Source: a virus (taxonomy: Duplodnaviria; Heunggongvirae; Uroviricota; Caudoviricetes). Taken from it: a stretch of 6,695 nucleotides of DNA. Position numbers and translations under genes: made by a program. The stretch's first letter is position 1. Every line of letters starts with the position of its first letter. A model generated the notes under the pieces. The model searched no databases. It worked only from the letters and a program-made list of their open reading frames with translations, and had not been told where the DNA came from. Where the stretch lies: IMG/VR virus record IMGVR_UViG_2740892230_000018; one strand, written 5' to 3'. Of this stretch, positions 334 through 6,695 are shown one piece after another.

Positions 334-1092
334 TCAAGTGCCTTTCCTGGTCCAGCCATATTTTTTGAATGCAGGCGCCGCTTCATCGGTTTGTAGCCAT
401 TCTGCAAATCGACGGGTTTCATCATTTGCATCCTGACGTACTGTAATGTTCATATCACGCCATATCACGTAGTCTGGCGCTATTTCCACGACATCACCAA
501 TTTCTGGATTACTGGCTGCCCAGTCAGCCCAGGTTATCCAGACATCTGCTCCAGGCTGATTCTCAAGAGCCTTACGTGCAGTTCCGCTATTGGGCGCATA
601 TAAAATAATATTTTTTCGGATTGCGGCGACAGTTTCTATATTCCCTTTACGTCCGGCAATATCTTCCCAGACGCCAGTGCCTGATGTATTACTGGTACCA
701 CCACCATCATTAACAATTACGCCAATCCCAGGTCTGGTCAGGTCGTCAATACTCCGGATATTTTTAGGATTACCTTTCTTTACCAGTAAAATACTTTTTC
801 GCAGATAAAGAGGCTGAATATCTTTTTCACTGAAGCTGTCTTTATGGTCCCGAATGATAGCCAGAGCAGATTGTTCTGATGCGCCAAACAAGATATCTGC
901 ATTTTTTTTGGCATCTTCATTCCATTTGTTCTGTGGGCCGTAATGAACGTTCACTATAATACCTGTTTTTTCGGCATAAAGTTTGGCTGCATCAAGCAAG
1001 GCTGTATGCGGGCCACCAGGACCATACAGATTGATATCAGCATAAGCAGCAGAAGACAGGAATATTAAAAAACCTGCCATTATGTTCCTCAT
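334..1092 (-). CDS. Secreted periplasmic substrate-binding protein, type 2 PBP fold, ModA (molybdate/anion)-like; orphan (no permease or ATPase nearby)
   Basis: 252-codon ORF, ATG at 1090-1092 with GGAG 6 nt upstream. N-terminus MRNIMAGFLIFLSSAAYA-DINLY looks like a Sec signal peptide with an AYA cleavage site. Architecture and the C-terminal motif ...FAEWLQTDEAAPAFKKYGW resemble ModA-type binding proteins from memory; not verified by search. Confidence 0.7.
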   Translation of the reverse strand: MRNIMAGFLIFLSSAAYADINLYGPGGPHTALLDAAKLYAEKTGIIVNVHYGPQNKWNEDAKKNADILFGASEQSALAIIRDHKDSFSEKDIQPLYLRKSILLVKKGNPKNIRSIDDLTRPGIGVIVNDGGGTSNTSGTGVWEDIAGRKGNIETVAAIRKNIILYAPNSGTARKALENQPGADVWITWADWAASNPEIGDVVEIAPDYVIWRDMNITVRQDANDETRRFAEWLQTDEAAPAFKKYGWTRKGT

Positions 1093-1256
1093 AAAAAACT
1101 CCTTTTATTGGTTATCATGAAATAAAGTTATAAACACTACAAATAATATATATTACATCCAGATAAACTTATCCGACTTTACCTCGTGCATAGCTTGTTA
1201 TTTAAAGTCAACAAAATAAGGAAAATTATACGCATATTGAAGAGTATAAACCTTAC

Positions 1257-1951: not shown

Positions 1952-2686
1952 TCATTGCCCGGACTTCCGACAAATCCCGGCAACCATATCCCGGTGCTTG
2001 TTCAGCTCCCGCAGCGCGGCGCAGACTCGCTCCCACTTCTGGACATGATTCTTCGCCCTACGCAGTTCGCGATTTGCCATATGCAGCGATGGCAAAATCA
2101 AATCATCTTCTCGCGTTGCAGTAAACGATGGCAGCGACTGCACAATGTCCGCCACAGTTTCTGTTTTAATATCTTCCTGTGTTGCATCTTTCTGTACCGG
2201 TAACGCAACACCGGCTGGCTGAGGAAAGGCTTTACCATCGGTTTCCGCTACCGATTCAACTTTCGGCTCTGCTGGTAAATTATCACCTGGTATGCAGTAA
2301 CGAATTTTACCGTTCTGGTTTACGCGAATCAGACGACCTTTGCTGATTGCCATTGCCAGCGTTGAAGCAACTTTGCGGGATGTTGTACCGAACAGCGTAG
2401 CCAGTTCATCCGCCGTTTGTGGTCCGCGTTGTTCAATCGTCGCGGTTAAATCGCACTCTGAGATTTTCGCTTCTGTTGCCGTGGTGGTTTCTTCTGGCGC
2501 TGGCTGTTCCTGCTGAACGTTGTTATCAGCCACACGCCAGGTGTATACGCTTTTATCAACGAAGCCAGCCTTTTTCAGTTCCCACAGCTCGTTCAGTACT
2601 TCTTCACGACTGATATCAAGGCGCGCAGCCAGCTCTACCGACGTGGCTTTTCCCATCGCTTTCAGTGCGTCAAAAACAGTCTCCAT
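1952..2686 (-). CDS. Lambdoid prophage hypothetical protein, DUF1627-like, with N-terminal winged-helix-like region
   Basis: 244-codon ORF, ATG at 2684-2686 with GGAGG 6 nt upstream, 33 nt after the P-like stop. The N-terminus [43 protein letters not shown] looks like a wHTH. Family name is from memory of E. coli prophage annotations. Confidence 0.7.
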
Positions 2687-2719: not shown

Positions 2720-3385
2720 TCAAACAAAACCAGCCGCTTTCCGGCGTTCATATTCCTGTTTCAGCAACTCAATTGGCGTTGGCCCCGACGGGCGTTTGGG
2801 GGCCGCCAGTTGTCGCCGGACTGGCGGAACGCTCAGGCCGTTACTAACATGCTTTGCCCATTTCGTCAGTTGCCGTTCTGCAAGCCGTTTTAATTCCCCT
2901 TCGGTCATCTGGCGCTCAATCCCCTTTGAACGCATCTCGAGGCAAATGTGATACAGCACAGGCTGAGACCACGGGTACTTATCACTTCCGTCGTATCGCC
3001 AGGACTCATTGCGCCAGCGGCAGTACTCCTCCATCACAGCATCCACCGTCAGACCGAATGGATTGGCTCCGCTTTTCGAAATCAGTGCCACAAACTCAGC
3101 CAGGTCCGGAGGCCATGTTTCACCCGCCCGGCAGCAGTCCATGCACTGGCGGCAGACCTGCCGGATTTGCTGCTCAGTCATCGCGCCAATCTGTGCAATC
3201 CAGAGCTTCGAAGGTGCGGCCCCGTTCTTCTGTGTCCAGCGGTTCGAATACACCTCCCCCATAAGCTCCCACAGCTTCCAGACCGTTTCCGTCGCTGATA
3301 AATCCGTTTTCACGTTCCCACTGCTCACGTGCTGCCCGAATTTCCTGAACTGCCCGTGATGCGGTGCCACCTGGTGCTGCTGCAT
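2720..3385 (-). CDS. Replication protein P-like (lambda P family, DnaB helicase loader)
   Basis: 221-codon ORF, ATG at 3383-3385 with GGGGG 6 nt upstream. Recalled lambda P aligns along its length (for example VDAVMEEYCRWR...YPWSQPVLYHICLEM... against lambda VDMVYEYCRKRGLYPDAESYPWKSNAHYWLV...). No Walker A motif, consistent with P rather than DnaC. Alternative starts at 3262 or 3181 would shorten the overlap with the O-like gene. Confidence 0.75.
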   Translation of the reverse strand: MQQHQVAPHHGQFRKFGQHVSSGNVKTDLSATETVWKLWELMGEVYSNRWTQKNGAAPSKLWIAQIGAMTEQQIRQVCRQCMDCCRAGETWPPDLAEFVALISKSGANPFGLTVDAVMEEYCRWRNESWRYDGSDKYPWSQPVLYHICLEMRSKGIERQMTEGELKRLAERQLTKWAKHVSNGLSVPPVRRQLAAPKRPSGPTPIELLKQEYERRKAAGFV

Positions 3386-4312
3386 GGTTTACCCCCTTGC
3401 TGACTGGTTTAACCTGCGCCCTGACGTGATTTACGTGACGGGCGAATTTCTGCTCCCACTGAATCTGCGTAAACACTTTCCCCTCCGCTGCCCAGTAGTC
3501 CCGGAAGGCGGCAAGTTCAGCAGGTGTAAATTCTGTCTCCGGCAAAGCCATCCCCCACAACGCAGCCCGTCGTCGAAAATCCCGTGACGGATACCAGCTA
3601 TCGCTCATCGGGAATTTTCCGATGGGTTCGCTCAGGCCATACAGGAATACAGGGGGGGCTGCCTGTAACGACAAAACTTCCTGCTCACTGGNNNNNNNNN
3701 NGTCATCGGAAATTTTCCGATGGGTTCGCTCAGGCCATCCAGGAATACAAGGGGTGCTGCCTGTAACGACAAAACTTCCTGCTCACTGGTCGGAGCACTC
3801 TCGCGTGCGTTATGTGTGGGGTTTAGATCTTTGGGTTCCTTTGGGTTCCGTGATCCGTTTTTGGGTGTCTTTGATGGAAAATTTGGGTGTCTTTGGTTAT
3901 TTTCCATGCAGCTAAGAGTTCCGTTTTTGGGTCTGTTTTGTGCTGAAACATAACCATTTTCGGTACTGTTTTTATTAACAGCACCAATTTTACCCACCTT
4001 TAAAGACTCCCGTTTTTGGGTGTATTCAGGCTCGGCAACACTTTCTTCTACACCGATAAGTCGGTACACCACAATTTGCTTTGTTCTGCCTTTTCTCTCA
4101 CCGGTATCAACAATTAACCCAATCTCCATCAGGTGTCGTAAGCTGTCCTGCACAGTCTTTTTGTTTAGTTCCGTTACTTCTGCCAGTGCAGATACAGACG
4201 GGTATGCACACAAATCGGCACCGCACATATCAGCAAGCCAGGTCAATACAGACTTACTGGATGAACTGCCGGTTTTCACCTTTTTAGCCCATCGTAGTGC
4301 ATCGATACTCAT
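3174..4312 (-). CDS. Replication initiator, O-like: N-terminal helix-turn-helix domain, iteron-encoded linker, DnaT-like C-terminal region; gene model crosses an assembly join
   Basis: N-terminal part from ATG 4310-4312 (MSIDALRWAKKVKTG...), GGGG about 5 nt upstream. C-terminal part is the 3174..3674 ORF (..SDSWYPSRDFRRRAALWGMALPETEFTPAELAAFRDYWAAEGKVF..). The two parts share the peptide LQAAP(L/P)VFL(D/Y)GLSEPIGKFPM on either side of the N run 3692-3701, so one copy is redundant and the true length is uncertain. Gene order matches lambda O then P. Confidence 0.6.
3605..3789. other. Probable assembly join: N run 3692-3701 flanked by two ~87-bp near-identical copies (3605-3691 and 3703-3789)
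   Basis: Copies differ at about 5 positions (for example catacagg versus catccagg). Exactly 10 N. Both copies encode the same O-like peptide. Confidence 0.6.
3829..4027. repeat. Putative phage origin of replication: iteron array (core TTTGGGT, consensus about CCGTTTTTGGGTGTCTTTG) plus an adjacent AT-rich segment, inside the O-like gene
   Basis: Read directly: tandem ctttgggttc x2 (3829-3848), ccgtttttgggtgtctttg (3855-3873), tttgggtgtctttgg (3883-3897), ccgtttttgggtctgttttg (3921-3940), cccgtttttgggtgtattc (4009-4027), with a more AT-rich stretch at 3941-4008. On the coding strand the repeats encode the PKNG-rich linker (RPKNGT, TPKNGSRNPKEPK). Lambda likewise has ori iterons within O. Confidence 0.55.
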
Positions 4313-4956
4313 ACAAACCCCTGGCAGACATTTGTTTATCTGCAAAGTAATATTGATATTGCTGACGATACGCATGCTTGAAAGCAATAGCTTTTTCTAT
4401 AAGCTCGTCAGTCTCACGTTCCACAACAGCTGGATCCGCAAAAAGCAGCCCGGACTCCACCACATCGCCATATTCTTTGTTTAATCCGGCGATCATGTAC
4501 GTAATGCTTTTTCCATCACTGATCTCACGATACAACCTGAAATCACTAATTCGGATAGCCTCCATAATTGCCGGAATCAGCGCCGTGAATTTTTTCCGCT
4601 TATCCCTGGTGTCGATAGCTTTCCAGCGTTCGAATATCTTCACCCGGTTAACGCCCAGCGCCCGTTGATCAACCTCGCCATCATTAAACGTGACGCGTTG
4701 AACATCGATGTTCGGGCGTTCTTTCAGAGCCCAGAATGCTTCCGTGATTAATATCGTCGCNNNNNNNNNNCCCGGCGATCATGTACGTAATGCTTTTTCC
4801 GTCAGTAATTTCACAATACAATCTGAAATCGCTGATCCGGATAGCCTCCATAATTGCCGGAATCAGCGCCGNNNNNNNNNNCTGCTCCTGTGTCATTCCT
4901 GGTCGGCATACCCAGGTATCCAGAGCCTCACAAACCTGTTCAGTGGTGATTTTCAT
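4284..4956 (-). CDS. Hypothetical early-region protein in the cII/ydaT position; gene model interrupted by an assembly-join block
   Basis: The N-terminal 25 codons (ATG 4954-4956, MKITTEQVCEALDTWVCRPGMTQEQ) overlap the dicC-like stop by 17 nt, suggesting translational coupling. The C-terminal 158 codons (4284-4760) are open up to the N run with no internal ATG. Both flanks are on codon boundaries at the gap edges. Function not recognised. Confidence 0.45.
4761..4881. other. Probable assembly artefact: 100-bp variant copy (4772-4871) of 4485-4584, bounded by two 10-N runs
   Basis: About 91% identical to 4485-4584. It encodes ALIPAIMEAIRISDFRLYCEITDGKSITYMIAG against ...RLYREISDGKSITYMIAG in the main copy. 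It sits about 190 bp from its cognate, so it looks like a displaced allelic mini-contig. Confidence 0.55.
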
Positions 4957-5167
4957 TGTTCAACCGCCCCGCCCGCTTTGCCTTACGATATTCGTCATAA
5001 ACTTTGGGGTCGTACTGAAGTTCCCCGCCGGATGCCTCTTGCAGGCGCATCGCGCGACCTTCAGGAACCAGTTCTCCCCATGCAGCAACGCTTGCCAGCC
5101 TAACTCCTGCGGCATTGGCAAGCTTTGTTTTGCTGCCAAAAAACGCTATAGCATCAATTTTCAACAT
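4940..5167 (-). CDS. dicC: Cro-like small regulator, DicC-like
   Basis: 75-codon ORF divergent from the dicA-like gene, ATG at 5165-5167 with AAGGAG 6 nt upstream. Size and position match DicC of the Qin prophage; the sequence MLKIDAIAFFGSKTKLANAAGVRLASVAAW looks like a small HTH. Confidence 0.7.
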   Translation of the reverse strand: MLKIDAIAFFGSKTKLANAAGVRLASVAAWGELVPEGRAMRLQEASGGELQYDPKVYDEYRKAKRAGRLNNENHH

Positions 5168-5243
5168 ATCGAACTCCTTAGATTTTCCTAAGGAAACTAG
5201 ATCGTAGAGAAACCTAAGTCAAGAAAAATTAGAATTACCTAAT
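5168..5243. promoter_or_regulatory. Divergent dicC/dicA promoter-operator region with repeated CCTAAG/CTTAGG half-sites
   Basis: The 76-bp intergenic region holds an inverted repeat tccttag-attttc-ctaagga (5175-5194) and further cctaag/cctaa copies at 5213-5218 and 5238-5242. Operator role is inferred from position between the two regulator genes. Confidence 0.5.
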
Positions 5244-5651
5244 ATGAAAAACGAAACCTTCGGTGCTCGCCTCTTATACAGGCGTAAAAAATTAAAACTG
5301 TCTCAGGCCGCATTAGGTAAGCTGGTCAAAGTGGCTCACGTAACAATTTCTCAATGGGAAAGAGATGAAACACAGCCAGCGGGGAAGAGATTATTCGCAC
5401 TGAGCCAGGCGCTTCAGTGCTCGCCGACTTGGCTTCTTTTTGGAGATGAAGATAAGCAACCAGGCGAACCGATCCCAGATAATCAGCCAGTTAATCTGAC
5501 AGAAGATCAAAAAGAGTTGCTTCAACTGTTCGACGCACTGCCTGAGTCAGAGCAAAAGGCTCTGTTGTCAGAGATGCGTGCTCGAGTTGAGAATTTCAAC
5601 AAACTTTTTGAAGAACTACTCAAAGCTCGCAAAAGAAGCGCAAATAAATAA
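5244..5651 (+). CDS. dicA: HTH-XRE repressor, DicA-like (lacks a LexA/S24 peptidase domain)
   Basis: 135-codon ORF. Strong recalled similarity to E. coli DicA: RLLYRRKKLKLSQAALGKL..ISQWERDETQP.GKRLFALSQALQCSPTWLLFGDEDKQP...LPESEQ...EMRARVENFNKLFEELLKARKR. Same length as DicA. Confidence 0.85.
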   Translation: MKNETFGARLLYRRKKLKLSQAALGKLVKVAHVTISQWERDETQPAGKRLFALSQALQCSPTWLLFGDEDKQPGEPIPDNQPVNLTEDQKELLQLFDALPESEQKALLSEMRARVENFNKLFEELLKARKRSANK

Positions 5652-5683: not shown

Positions 5684-5714
5684 AAGCACAAACTTTCAAA
5701 TACTTGTGTTTTTT
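5684..5714 (+). terminator. Candidate intrinsic terminator downstream of dicA
   Basis: Stem agcacaa / ttgtgtt (5684-5690 with 5704-5710, includes a G-U pair), 13-nt loop, then a T run through 5714. The loop is long, so confidence is low. A variant copy exists past the N run at 5803-5812. Confidence 0.3.
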
Positions 5715-5908
5715 ACATCAAGAAGCTTAGGTTTTTCTACACAAAAAGCTTGACCATAACTCTTAGGCTATTCTAAATTCTACTCATCAAGACACCGCAC
5801 GGNNNNNNNNNNTCCCTTTTTTTCGCCACTCTCTGTAATAAAAAGCATAAACTTTCAAATGCTTGTGTTTTTTACATCAAAAAACTTAGGTTTTTCTACA
5901 CAAAAAGC

Positions 5909-5939
5909 TTGACCACAATTCTTAGGTTATTCTAAATTC
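5909..5939 (+). promoter_or_regulatory. Candidate sigma70 promoter for the ydfABC (dicB-operon) transcript, with flanking CTTAGG operator-like half-sites
   Basis: -35 TTGACC (5909-5914), 18-bp spacer, -10 TAAATT (5933-5938). CTTAGG occurs at 5885-5890 and 5921-5926, the same motif as in the dicA/dicC intergenic region. A variant copy lies at 5750-5779. Confidence 0.35.
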
Positions 5940-6014: not shown

Positions 6015-6170
6015 ATGGATACTATCGATCTTGGCAACAACGAATCTCTGGTATGCGGCGTGTTTCCCAACCAGGACGGTACGTTCACCGCGATGACGTA
6101 TACCAAAAGCAAAACGTTTAAAACCGAAAATGGTGCCCGTCGCTGGCTGGAAAGAAACTCAGGTGAGTGA
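6015..6170 (+). CDS. ydfA: Small prophage protein YdfA-like (51 aa)
   Basis: ATG at 6015-6017 with GAGG 5 nt upstream; translation MDTIDLGNNESLVCGVFPNQDGTFTAMTYTKSKTFKTENGARRWLERNSGE. Position after dicA matches Qin synteny. The ORF-track model from GTG 5961 is a longer alternative. Confidence 0.7.
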   Translation: MDTIDLGNNESLVCGVFPNQDGTFTAMTYTKSKTFKTENGARRWLERNSGE

Positions 6171-6171
6171 T

Positions 6172-6300
6172 ATGGATTTCGACACAATCATGGAAAAGGC
6201 TTACGAAGAATACTTCGAAGGCCTTGCCGAAGGCGAAGAAGCTCACAGCTTCAACGAATTTAAACAGGTGCTTTCCAGTTCGGCAAAATCTAATGGCTGA
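6172..6300 (+). CDS. ydfB: Small prophage protein YdfB-like (42 aa)
   Basis: ATG at 6172-6174, one nt after the ydfA stop; translation MDFDTIMEKAYEEYFEGLAEGEEAHSFNEFKQVLSSSAKSNG, stop 6298-6300. Not in the ORF track because of its size; the track ORF 6167..6514 is in another frame and runs through two N gaps. Confidence 0.65.
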   Translation: MDFDTIMEKAYEEYFEGLAEGEEAHSFNEFKQVLSSSAKSNG

Positions 6301-6540
6301 TAAGCGAAACAGCACCGCGAGGAATCAGNNNNNNNNNNTGGTCTTGCCGAAGGCGAAGAAACTCTCAGCTTCAACGAATTTAAACAGGCGCTTTCCAGTT
6401 CGGCAAAATCTAACGGCTGATAAGCGAAACAGCACCGCGAGGAATCAGNNNNNNNNNNTCAGCTTCAGTGAGTTTAAACAGGCGCTTTCCAGCTCGGCAA
6501 AATCTAACGGCTGATAAGCGAAGCAGCACCGCGAGGAATC
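6221..6540. other. Probable assembly joins: three variant copies of the ydfB 3' end and ydfC ribosome-binding region, separated by N runs 6329-6338 and 6449-6458
   Basis: 6221-6328, 6339-6448 and 6459-6540 are collinear variants with a few substitutions (gctcacagc / actctcagc, caggtg / caggcg, taatggc / taacggc). The first two both end at ggaatcag. Confidence 0.6.
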
Positions 6541-6543
6541 AGT

Positions 6544-6695
6544 ATGCAGAAACGAGAACCCGTCATCATCGCGCCAGACTATACCGATGATGAACTTTAT
6601 GAGTGGATGCGCCAGAAAATTAATGCAGTGCAGGATCTGAAATGGGCCAATGAAGCCAGGACTAAGCAGGCTGAAAATCTGTCCGCTCTGGAGCA
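6544..6695 (+). CDS. ydfC: YdfC-like protein, 5' partial (runs off the window end)
   Basis: ATG at 6544-6546 with GAGG about 8 nt upstream; MQKREPVIIAPDYTDDELYEWMRQKINAVQDLKWANEARTKQAENLSALE... Synteny dicA-ydfA-ydfB-ydfC as in Qin. Confidence 0.65.
   Translation, partial: MQKREPVIIAPDYTDDELYEWMRQKINAVQDLKWANEARTKQAENLSALE

Follow-up and report, generated by a model that had tools for sequence, protein, structure and literature searches.

The 6,695-bp sequence IMGVR_UViG_2740892230_000018, called the window below, carries an array of short repeats within a replication initiator gene that is read from the minus strand. These repeats are most probably the iterons of a lambda-style prophage replication origin, located inside a lambda-P-dependent initiator module of the HTH_36/DnaT type. 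The window is approximately 98-99% identical to PPompW, an ompW-integrated prophage of enterohaemorrhagic Escherichia coli (EHEC) (e.g., LC567822.1). The arrangement is an ordinary and expected one; it extends the well-known lambda scheme and adds no new principle.

The heptamer TTTGGGT occurs six times in the window, always on the plus strand (starts at 3830, 3840, 3860, 3882, 3926 and 4015; span 3830-4021). The mean number expected by chance is 1.04, and none of 200 dinucleotide-preserving shuffles reached six. A preliminary description of this DNA had counted at least five copies of a motif of about 19 bp with this core; the count holds, with the restriction that two of the six hits are 10-bp partial repeats. 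A repeat finder reported a 24-nt family at 3848-3871, 3914-3937, 3947-3970 and 4003-4026 and a 14-nt family at 3830, 3860 and 3882, and Tandem Repeats Finder reported a 10-bp tandem, CTTTGGGTTC, in 2.1 copies at 3829-3849. On the gene strand the unit is a AAGACACCCAAAAACGGGTGTCTT-like imperfect inverted repeat of about 18-24 bp with an A-tract centre. Three full copies, one variant copy, two decayed copies and one 2 × 10-bp partial repeat make up the array at 3829-4026 (Table 1). Iteron 1 of Edwardsiella phage EPP-1 has the same core and 3' flank as iteron A, and variant cores of the type CCCAAATTTGG are also found in Acinetobacter phage LZ35, in Bcep176 and in lambda iteron 3. The array covers gene nt ~287-484 (aa ~96-162), lying between the winged-helix domain (aa 1-95) and the DnaT domain (aa 201-267). 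The repeats encode RPKNG, TPKNG, NPKEPKD and HPNFP, with copy A in another frame; that they lie inside the initiator gene and code for its PKNG-rich linker, as first described, is directly seen in the minus-strand open reading frame (ORF).

A tblastn search with the N-terminal domain (N-domain) and linker returned 72 phage records. Six diverse phage records were compared, namely Edwardsiella EPP-1 and GF-2, Escherichia phiV10, Vibrio H20, Acinetobacter LZ35 and Burkholderia Bcep176; the full-length identity of the phage homologues to the window protein is 27-43%. All seven phage initiators that share the N-domain, from E. coli, Edwardsiella, Vibrio, Acinetobacter and Burkholderia, contain 2-7 copies of the core CCCAAAAACGG (at most two mismatches) at gene nt ~260-470, after the winged-helix domain, and the same core is nearly absent elsewhere in these 5-9 kb loci. 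Scanning one genome per species with a four-sequence alignment yielded 73 further loci from Enterobacterales, Vibrio, Pseudoalteromonas, Acinetobacter, Marinomonas, Sphingobium, Zoogloeaceae, Desulfovibrionaceae and others. With at most one mismatch, the core has a density of 4.31 per kb on the gene strand of gene nt 200-620, compared with 0.019 per kb elsewhere (both strands), an enrichment of about 225-fold; at least one copy is present in 48 of the 73 loci and at least two in 33. Most of the loci that lack the core have A-tract-centred arrays of their own, mainly palindromes, at the same gene position. Such lineage-specific repeats are GTCCCAACAATGGGAC in Acinetobacter, CACCCAAAATTGGGGT in Wohlfahrtiimonas, GTCGGAAAAATCCGAC in Sphingobium, GTGCCAAAAGTGGCAC in Zoogloeaceae and CGCCGGAAACGGCG in Desulfovibrionaceae. 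These data show that the array exists and that, as DNA, it is conserved and inherited together with the N-domain. Conservation of the repeats in homologous initiator genes, on which the preliminary description had made its interpretation depend, was thus found, with the gene position unchanged, in different genera and even in different classes. The lineages with the most divergent half-sites also differ in the putative recognition helix, where the otherwise conserved RKT[VI] motif is altered; in this small and anecdotal sample, uncorrected for phylogeny, a tie between the two changes is suggestive.

Within and between genes the core is read in frames 0, 1 and 2, yielding PKNG, TQKR and DPKTE, and the TTTGGGT starts in the window fall at 2, 0, 2, 0, 2 and 1 modulo 3. 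In frame-0 motifs proline is encoded by CCC in 18/18 cases (18/95 elsewhere in the same genes) and asparagine by AAC in 20/20 (58/111 elsewhere). The observed count of near-exact cores was reached in none of 2,000 synonymous shuffles for EPP-1 and Vibrio H20, and in 38 of 2,000 for PPompW (three observed, mean 0.93). Because the core is read in three frames, the synonymous codons are fixed and the shuffles agree, the constraint is judged from these data to be on the DNA and not on the peptide, and a purely peptide-driven repeat is ruled out. The same data bear on the explanation that the repeats are a by-product of a slippage-prone PKNG peptide linker, selected as protein or unselected, and have no function at the DNA level. 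The region does encode a low-complexity, probably disordered linker, and the spacing in some homologues is a multiple of 3 (18/24 nt in phiV10, 24 nt in Vibrio H20), which would fit duplication of codon units. An identical DNA core that yields unrelated peptides and the fixed synonymous positions contradict this explanation, as do the palindromic units, the retention of the core between proteins as divergent as those compared above with no conservation of the linker peptide between copies, and the lack of the core in initiators that combine the same C-domain with another N-domain. A linker by-product appears highly improbable and is largely refuted by the frame and codon data.

The full-length initiator, as present in PPompW, has 346 aa and consists of the winged-helix N-domain, the low-complexity PKNG-rich linker and the DnaT domain. 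The DnaT DNA-binding domain (PF17948) is matched with 61 bits, above the gathering score of 25 bits, and six homologues aligned over the whole HTH_36 domain (PF13730) score 30.5-49.3 bits. The protein falls in PHROG 1032, 'replication initiation protein'. Directly downstream is the gene for a P-like loader, which matches PF06992 with 62.2 bits (cut-off 26) and probably starts at the ATG at 3181, giving an 8-nt overlap with the initiator stop as in Rac-SA53. The term 'O-like' in the preliminary description is justified by architecture and by remote similarity, and not by domain family: the N-domain is HTH_36-like, the C-domain is DnaT, and the full-length PPompW protein has no match to Phage_rep_O (PF04492) at E up to 0.01, compared with 123 bits for lambda O. 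The sole bridge is formed by the O-like PHROGs 391, 678 and 345, all of which are matched by both the N-domain and lambda O; homology of the N-domain to lambda O is unproven. A sequence search of PDB with the N-domain profile gave nothing below E 0.1. An iteron plasmid replicon of the RepA/pi/RepE type was also considered, and was ruled out by the position of the array in the ORF and by the lack of a Rep_3-type Pfam match in the initiator, where only RP-C was found, below threshold (16.5 bits).

Some minor features of the two genes were recorded. The P-like ORF is short, with about 153 aa from ATG 3181 (140 aa annotated in the PPompW record; lambda P has 233 aa). Its open frame (2720-3385) runs 204 nt further upstream over the 3' end of the initiator gene, the Pfam match to P has its start 14 residues upstream of ATG 3181, and PHROG 15931 matches the initiator C-terminus and the P-like ORF alike. 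A perfect 9+1+9 palindrome, CATCGGAAATTTTCCGATG, is located at 3704-3722 (variant at 3607-3625), at the start of the DnaT domain, where it encodes EPIGKFPM; the allele of the PPompW reference is imperfect. In Rac-SA53, ydaU contains a tandem pair of imperfect palindromes of this type at a distance of 35 bp (record 3462-3530). The palindrome of the window is similar to the Sphingobium iteron; it could be due to chance, or could be a second element for protein binding that is linked to the DnaT-type C-half.

In-gene iterons are typical of phage initiators. The experimentally defined lambda iterons, ATCCCTCAAAACGAGGGA, ATCCCCTAAAACGAGGGA, ATCCCTCAAATTGGGGGA and ATCCCTCAAAACAGGGGGA (PMC7466680), are located at O gene nt 349-433 with non-codon spacings of 20, 24 and 23 nt, and are followed by a 40-mer of 80% AT. 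Lambda and the window have in common several imperfect inverted repeats of about 19 bp within the initiator ORF, in the part that separates the N-terminal domain for DNA binding from the C-terminal recruitment domain; the iteron design TCCC..AAAAC..GGGA with its A-tract centre, AAATTGG variants included; repeat spacings that are not multiples of 3 nt; and a P-type loader gene that follows. The leftward gene order of the window, cI-like / Cro-like / cII-like / initiator / P-like, is the lambda order cI / cro / cII / initiator / P. The claim that the region mirrors the organisation of lambda ori is supported by the in-gene array at the same relative position, the shared iteron layout and this gene order. 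The N-domain is Phage_rep_O in lambda and HTH_36-like in the window, and the C-domain is the lambda-O C-terminal domain and DnaT-type, respectively. The arms of the window iterons are about 3 bp closer together (CCC-AAAAAC-GGG versus CCCTC-AAAAC-GAGGG), and the best copies of the family, ATCCCAAAAACGGGAT in phiV10, ATCCCAAAATTGGGAT in GF-2 and AAGACACCCAAAAACGGGAGTCTT in EPP-1 and PPompW, show the lambda design with this closer spacing. In the window the copies are also more numerous and wider apart (20-89 bp), no tract of 75-80% AT follows the last iteron, and the P-like protein is smaller than lambda P.

The 'primosomal proteins' of the phiV10/epsilon15 type share with the window the HTH_36 + DnaT architecture and a downstream P-like gene. 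The phiV10 initiator is 41% identical to the window protein over its full length (39% over the 172-aa query) and contains seven core copies (at most two mismatches) at gene nt 261-465; unlike those of the window, they are tightly spaced (18-24 nt), share frame 0 and precede three copies of the 12-mer AACCAGTCATAT. The Stx phages 933W and P27 likewise have in-gene arrays (six iterons), in which extra, weaker iterons add linker residues; the weakly bound iterons are still needed for replication (PMC7466680). Their O proteins are true lambda O proteins and their iterons have lambda sequences, whereas the window represents a different initiator family. In Bacillus phage SPP1, repeats in direct orientation together with an AT-rich DNA unwinding element form oriL within gene 38, as experimentally established (PMC6316719). 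There, as is probable for the window, the repeats lie inside the gene of their binding protein, in SPP1 the replisome organiser G38P; the unrelated host phylum, the different repeats, the second origin oriR and the gp39/gp40 loader-helicase pair set SPP1 apart.

The most AT-rich stretch of the gene is a candidate unwinding region (Table 1), with 66% AT compared with 55% for the gene part 3790-4312. It contains the least stable 40- and 60-mers within 3750-4300, and these rank only ~400-450 of ~6200-6400 in the whole window. The AT-rich segment that had been described as adjacent to the repeats is thus real and modest; it is located inside the array and made of the decayed iterons A2 and A'. The stretch is regarded as decayed iterons because it aligns with two intact iterons of EPP-1, the closest phage relative, and since this alignment holds position for position, a role as lambda-like unwinding flank was rejected. 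The PPompW and EPP-1 arrays show positional orthology for six iteron positions, of which positions 2 and 3 are decayed in PPompW. In relatives and in lambda the AT-rich element is found in the slot directly after the array, which corresponds to 3829-3849 in the window. In 40 of 66 family genes the start of the most AT-rich 40-mer is at gene nt 400-499, and the mean AT excess over the 66 has its peak at gene nt 450-500 (nt ~476), just past the array, as it is in lambda. In EPP-1 the segment orthologous to the post-array segment of the window is the most AT-rich 40-mer of the gene.

Short tandem repeats of other motifs directly follow the last iteron in several relatives. They comprise the three 12-mers of phiV10 (phage record 2909-2944), CAGAACCAGTCATTAGAACC-like units in Vibrio H20 (record ~2965-3005) and GF-2 (record 2795-2842), and two copies of AGAACAGTAGGAACAGT in Bcep176 (record 2942-2977). 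PPompW and EPP-1 close the post-array segment with AAAGATCTA(A/C)CCCC, which includes a GATC site. These tandems sit at the AT-rich unwinding position of lambda and could be a family-specific unwinding or loading element.

Polymorphism was examined in 80 viral-contig loci, all from E. coli prophages with N-domains 99-100% identical, which gave 26 array haplotypes. The cores of iterons A and D contain no single-nucleotide polymorphism (SNP) among these haplotypes. Iteron B reads CGG, the consensus, both in the window and in most haplotypes, and CAG in the PPompW reference record; in many haplotypes gene nt 357 has changed from T to C, which restores ACCGAAAACGG in iteron A'. The initiator ORF is intact at 346 aa in 70 of the 80 loci. 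N-domain and array (window 3800-4320) are present at ≥95% identity in 908 of 5,426 complete E. coli genomes, where the gene is annotated as 'DnaT-like ssDNA-binding domain-containing protein' with no origin marked; no origin is annotated in the phiV10 and PPompW records either. The literature searched gave nothing usable on iterons for phiV10, epsilon15 or DnaT-type initiators, or on Rac oriJ. The array might also be a relic: once an origin, it would have lost its function in a prophage that is defective. In comparison with EPP-1, two of the seven positional copies have degenerated, the AT-richness that 40/66 relatives show after the array is lacking, and the PPompW record contains a frameshifted exonuclease pseudogene. 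This explanation is considered unlikely in view of the conservation of N-domain and array at ~95-100% in the complete genomes and of the intact ORF, and given that two iterons and the AT-rich region are sufficient for unwinding of lambda in vitro (PMC7466680).

If the array is an origin, its use can be described after the lambda model. Early transcription from the Cro-side promoter would run leftward and reach the initiator gene via the cII-like gene. Dimers of the winged-helix N-domain would bind the imperfect palindromes of about 20 bp, with a consensus near AAGACACCC-AAAAAC-GGGTGTCTT, in the DNA that codes for the flexible linker of the initiator itself. An O-some-like nucleoprotein complex could then form on the array and destabilise a neighbouring stretch, either the AT-rich segment 3938-4002 or the post-array segment 3790-3849, and the DnaT-type C-domain together with the adjacent lambda-P-like protein would recruit the host DnaB. 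Iteron binding, unwinding and loader recruitment are the steps that we infer here by analogy.

Several results weigh against an origin at this site. The full core is present only in copies A, B and D. The only AT-rich stretch is modest and built of decayed iterons, and the post-array segment (E1/E2, AGATCT and a C-rich stretch) is not AT-rich. The HTH_36 match of the window/PPompW protein (20.9 bits, E 3e-4) is under the 25-bit cut-off, and when the N-domain of the family was aligned with the lambda O N-terminus by hhalign, the probability was only 5%. For PPompW alone the result of the synonymous shuffles is just moderately significant, and SNPs did not significantly avoid the cores among the haplotypes (3/35 variable sites in 33/230 nt, about 5 expected). 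No sigma-70 promoters or intrinsic terminators were found by a simple scan of 3100-5400, so a pR-like promoter could not be placed. The literature searched contained no binding or replication experiments on this N-domain family.

The absence of a strong AT-rich element beside the array in this prophage, and the presence of much less stable DNA elsewhere in the window (e.g., 5193-5252 and 1113-1172), would also fit repeats that are bound by the initiator mainly for regulation (autoregulation, titration/handcuffing, incompatibility), with initiation elsewhere, for example in an intergenic AT-rich region. Plasmid iterons have such control roles. A mainly regulatory function is nevertheless held to be improbable. 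Across the family the AT-rich peak directly follows the array, the other AT-rich sites of the window are intergenic promoter/operator regions or the foreign Paa/AdfO flank, and in-gene arrays are the origin itself in lambda and the Stx phages (PMC7466680) and in SPP1 (PMC6316719).

Among the homologues of the N-domain, the C-domain is DnaT (PPompW, phiV10), Phg_2220_C (EPP-1) or the lambda-O C-terminal domain (GF-2) and is unassigned in the others, and the downstream partner is P-like, a DnaB-like helicase or DUF6475. In the sequences compared, the repeats are co-inherited with the initiator N-domain, whatever the C-domain. The GF-2 initiator (phage record 2429-3271) is a natural chimera, in which an HTH_36-type N-domain with CCCAAAATTGGG iterons is joined to a lambda-O-type C-domain (TRPDAAIQRGTKWGT...WIYGVQL), with the P gene next. 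Because the GF-2 N-domain thus holds the slot of the lambda O origin-binding domain before the lambda-O C-domain and P, the N-domain is probably the origin-binding domain; the chimera is the strongest indirect argument for this role. The opposite combination is found in Rac-SA53. Its YdaU/YdaV region resembles the window in the C-half (DnaT domain and tail) and the loader gene, which are ~91% identical at the DNA level. YdaU differs from the window in its DUF1376 N-domain and its linker, and has no CCCAAAAACGG array, only three weak matches (at most two mismatches) compared with 2.39 expected by chance. Such likeness of the C-half combined with a different N-half shows that the half for presumed origin specificity was swapped as a cassette.

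More generally, and with somewhat more doubt than confidence, the winged-helix N-domain and its in-gene array could be considered an ancient, portable 'origin-specificity cassette'. Lambda O would have it by common descent, repeated fusions would have joined it to various recruitment domains (DnaT, the lambda-O C-domain, Phg_2220_C and others) in Gamma-, Beta-, Alpha- and Deltaproteobacteria, and its recognition helix would track the half-sites, RKT[VI] changing to HRDTV, NRHTI and SDRAV as CCCAA changes to GTCGG, GTGCC and CCCCCG. The ground for shared descent would be the common TCCC..AAAAC..GGGA design, despite undetectable similarity at the Pfam level. If this tentative proposal is true, the family is a natural resource from which the code of DNA recognition by phage initiators could be read.

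A probable origin can be assigned in this way to the prophage replication module of ~17% of complete E. coli genomes; the carriers include the EHEC lineages O157, O26, O111 and O145. Origin and specificity determinant could help to predict cross-activation or interference among co-resident lambdoid prophages after induction, which bears on the biology of Shiga toxin (Stx) phages. The lineage-specific palindromes found across the family are test cases for initiator-DNA recognition, and the covariation of half-sites and initiators is the most reusable by-product of the analysis.

Table 1. Repeat copies, genes and assembly joins in the window (coordinates of the whole stretch)
Feature	Position	Strand	Remarks
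Iteron A, full	4003-4026	-	AATACACCCAAAAACGGGAGTCTT; core 4020-4010; frame +1, peptide YTQKRES
Iteron A2, decayed	3978-4001	-	AAAGGTGGGTAAAATTGGTGCTGT; aligns with intact EPP-1 iteron 2, TAAAGACACCCAAAAACGGTGCTGTTAA
Iteron A', decayed	3947-3970	-	AACAGTACCGAAAATGGTTATGTT; aligns with EPP-1 iteron 3
Iteron B, full	3914-3937	-	AACAGACCCAAAAACGGAACTCTT; frame 0, peptide RPKNG
Iteron C, variant core CCCAAATTTTCC	3872-3895	-	CAAAGACACCCAAATTTTCCATCA; aligns with EPP-1 variant AAAGACACCCAATTTTGG
Iteron D, full	3850-3873	-	CAAAGACACCCAAAAACGGATCAC; frame 0, peptide TPKNG
E1/E2, two tandem 10-bp partial copies	3829-3849	-	GGAACCCAAA x2, then AGATCT (GATC inside)
Most AT-rich stretch of the gene, candidate unwinding region	3938-4002		between iterons A and B; 66% AT
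Initiator N-terminal winged-helix (HTH_36-like) domain, presumed iteron-binding	4028-4312	-	aa 1-95
Initiator coding sequence, 5' part: N-domain and PKNG-rich linker	3703-4312	-	ATG at 4312; contig piece 3703-4760
Initiator coding sequence, 3' part: DnaT DNA-binding domain and C-terminal tail	3174-3691	-	
Lambda-P-like helicase-loader gene	2720-3181	-	PF06992, E 6.6e-17; phrog_109
cII-like/YdaT gene	between Cro-like and initiator genes	-	
P22-Cro-like gene	4940-5167	-	
cI/DicA-like repressor gene	5244-5651	+	
N10 runs	3692-3701, 4761-4770, 4872-4881, 5803-5812, 6329-6338, 6449-6458		flanking overlaps 91-95% identical

The window is a draft scaffold with six joins of ten N (N10), each flanked by near-identical overlaps of 83-148 bp. 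The initiator gene is split by the join at 3692-3701, with 87 bp duplicated on both sides. The scaffold, put together at contig ends, probably represents collapsed or variant copies of several similar prophages, and the joins make the initiator gene, the cII-like gene and the ORFs at 6167-6590 appear interrupted or duplicated. No DnaA boxes were found in the window with the relaxed search TTWTNCACA, giving no evidence for an involvement of DnaA.

Downstream of the cI/DicA-like gene there are two arrays of 1.9 copies of a 23-bp unit, GTTTTTCTACACAAAAAGCTTAG and GTTTTTTACATCAAAAAACTTAG, at 5708-5751 and 5867-5910. They are mutual copies across the N10 join at 5803-5812 and may be operator-like or other regulatory repeats. 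The ORF at 334-1092 (minus strand) encodes a Paa/AdfO adherence factor with a solute-binding-protein fold (SBP_bac_11). The DNA with the highest AT content in the window (1113-1172, 82% AT) flanks this ORF, which has the look of a moron that was inserted downstream of the replication module. At the position of ydaW in Rac, immediately following the P-like gene, the ORF at 1952-2686 (minus strand) encodes a DUF1627 protein with an N-terminal winged-helix (HTH_20-like), which is kept in PPompW.

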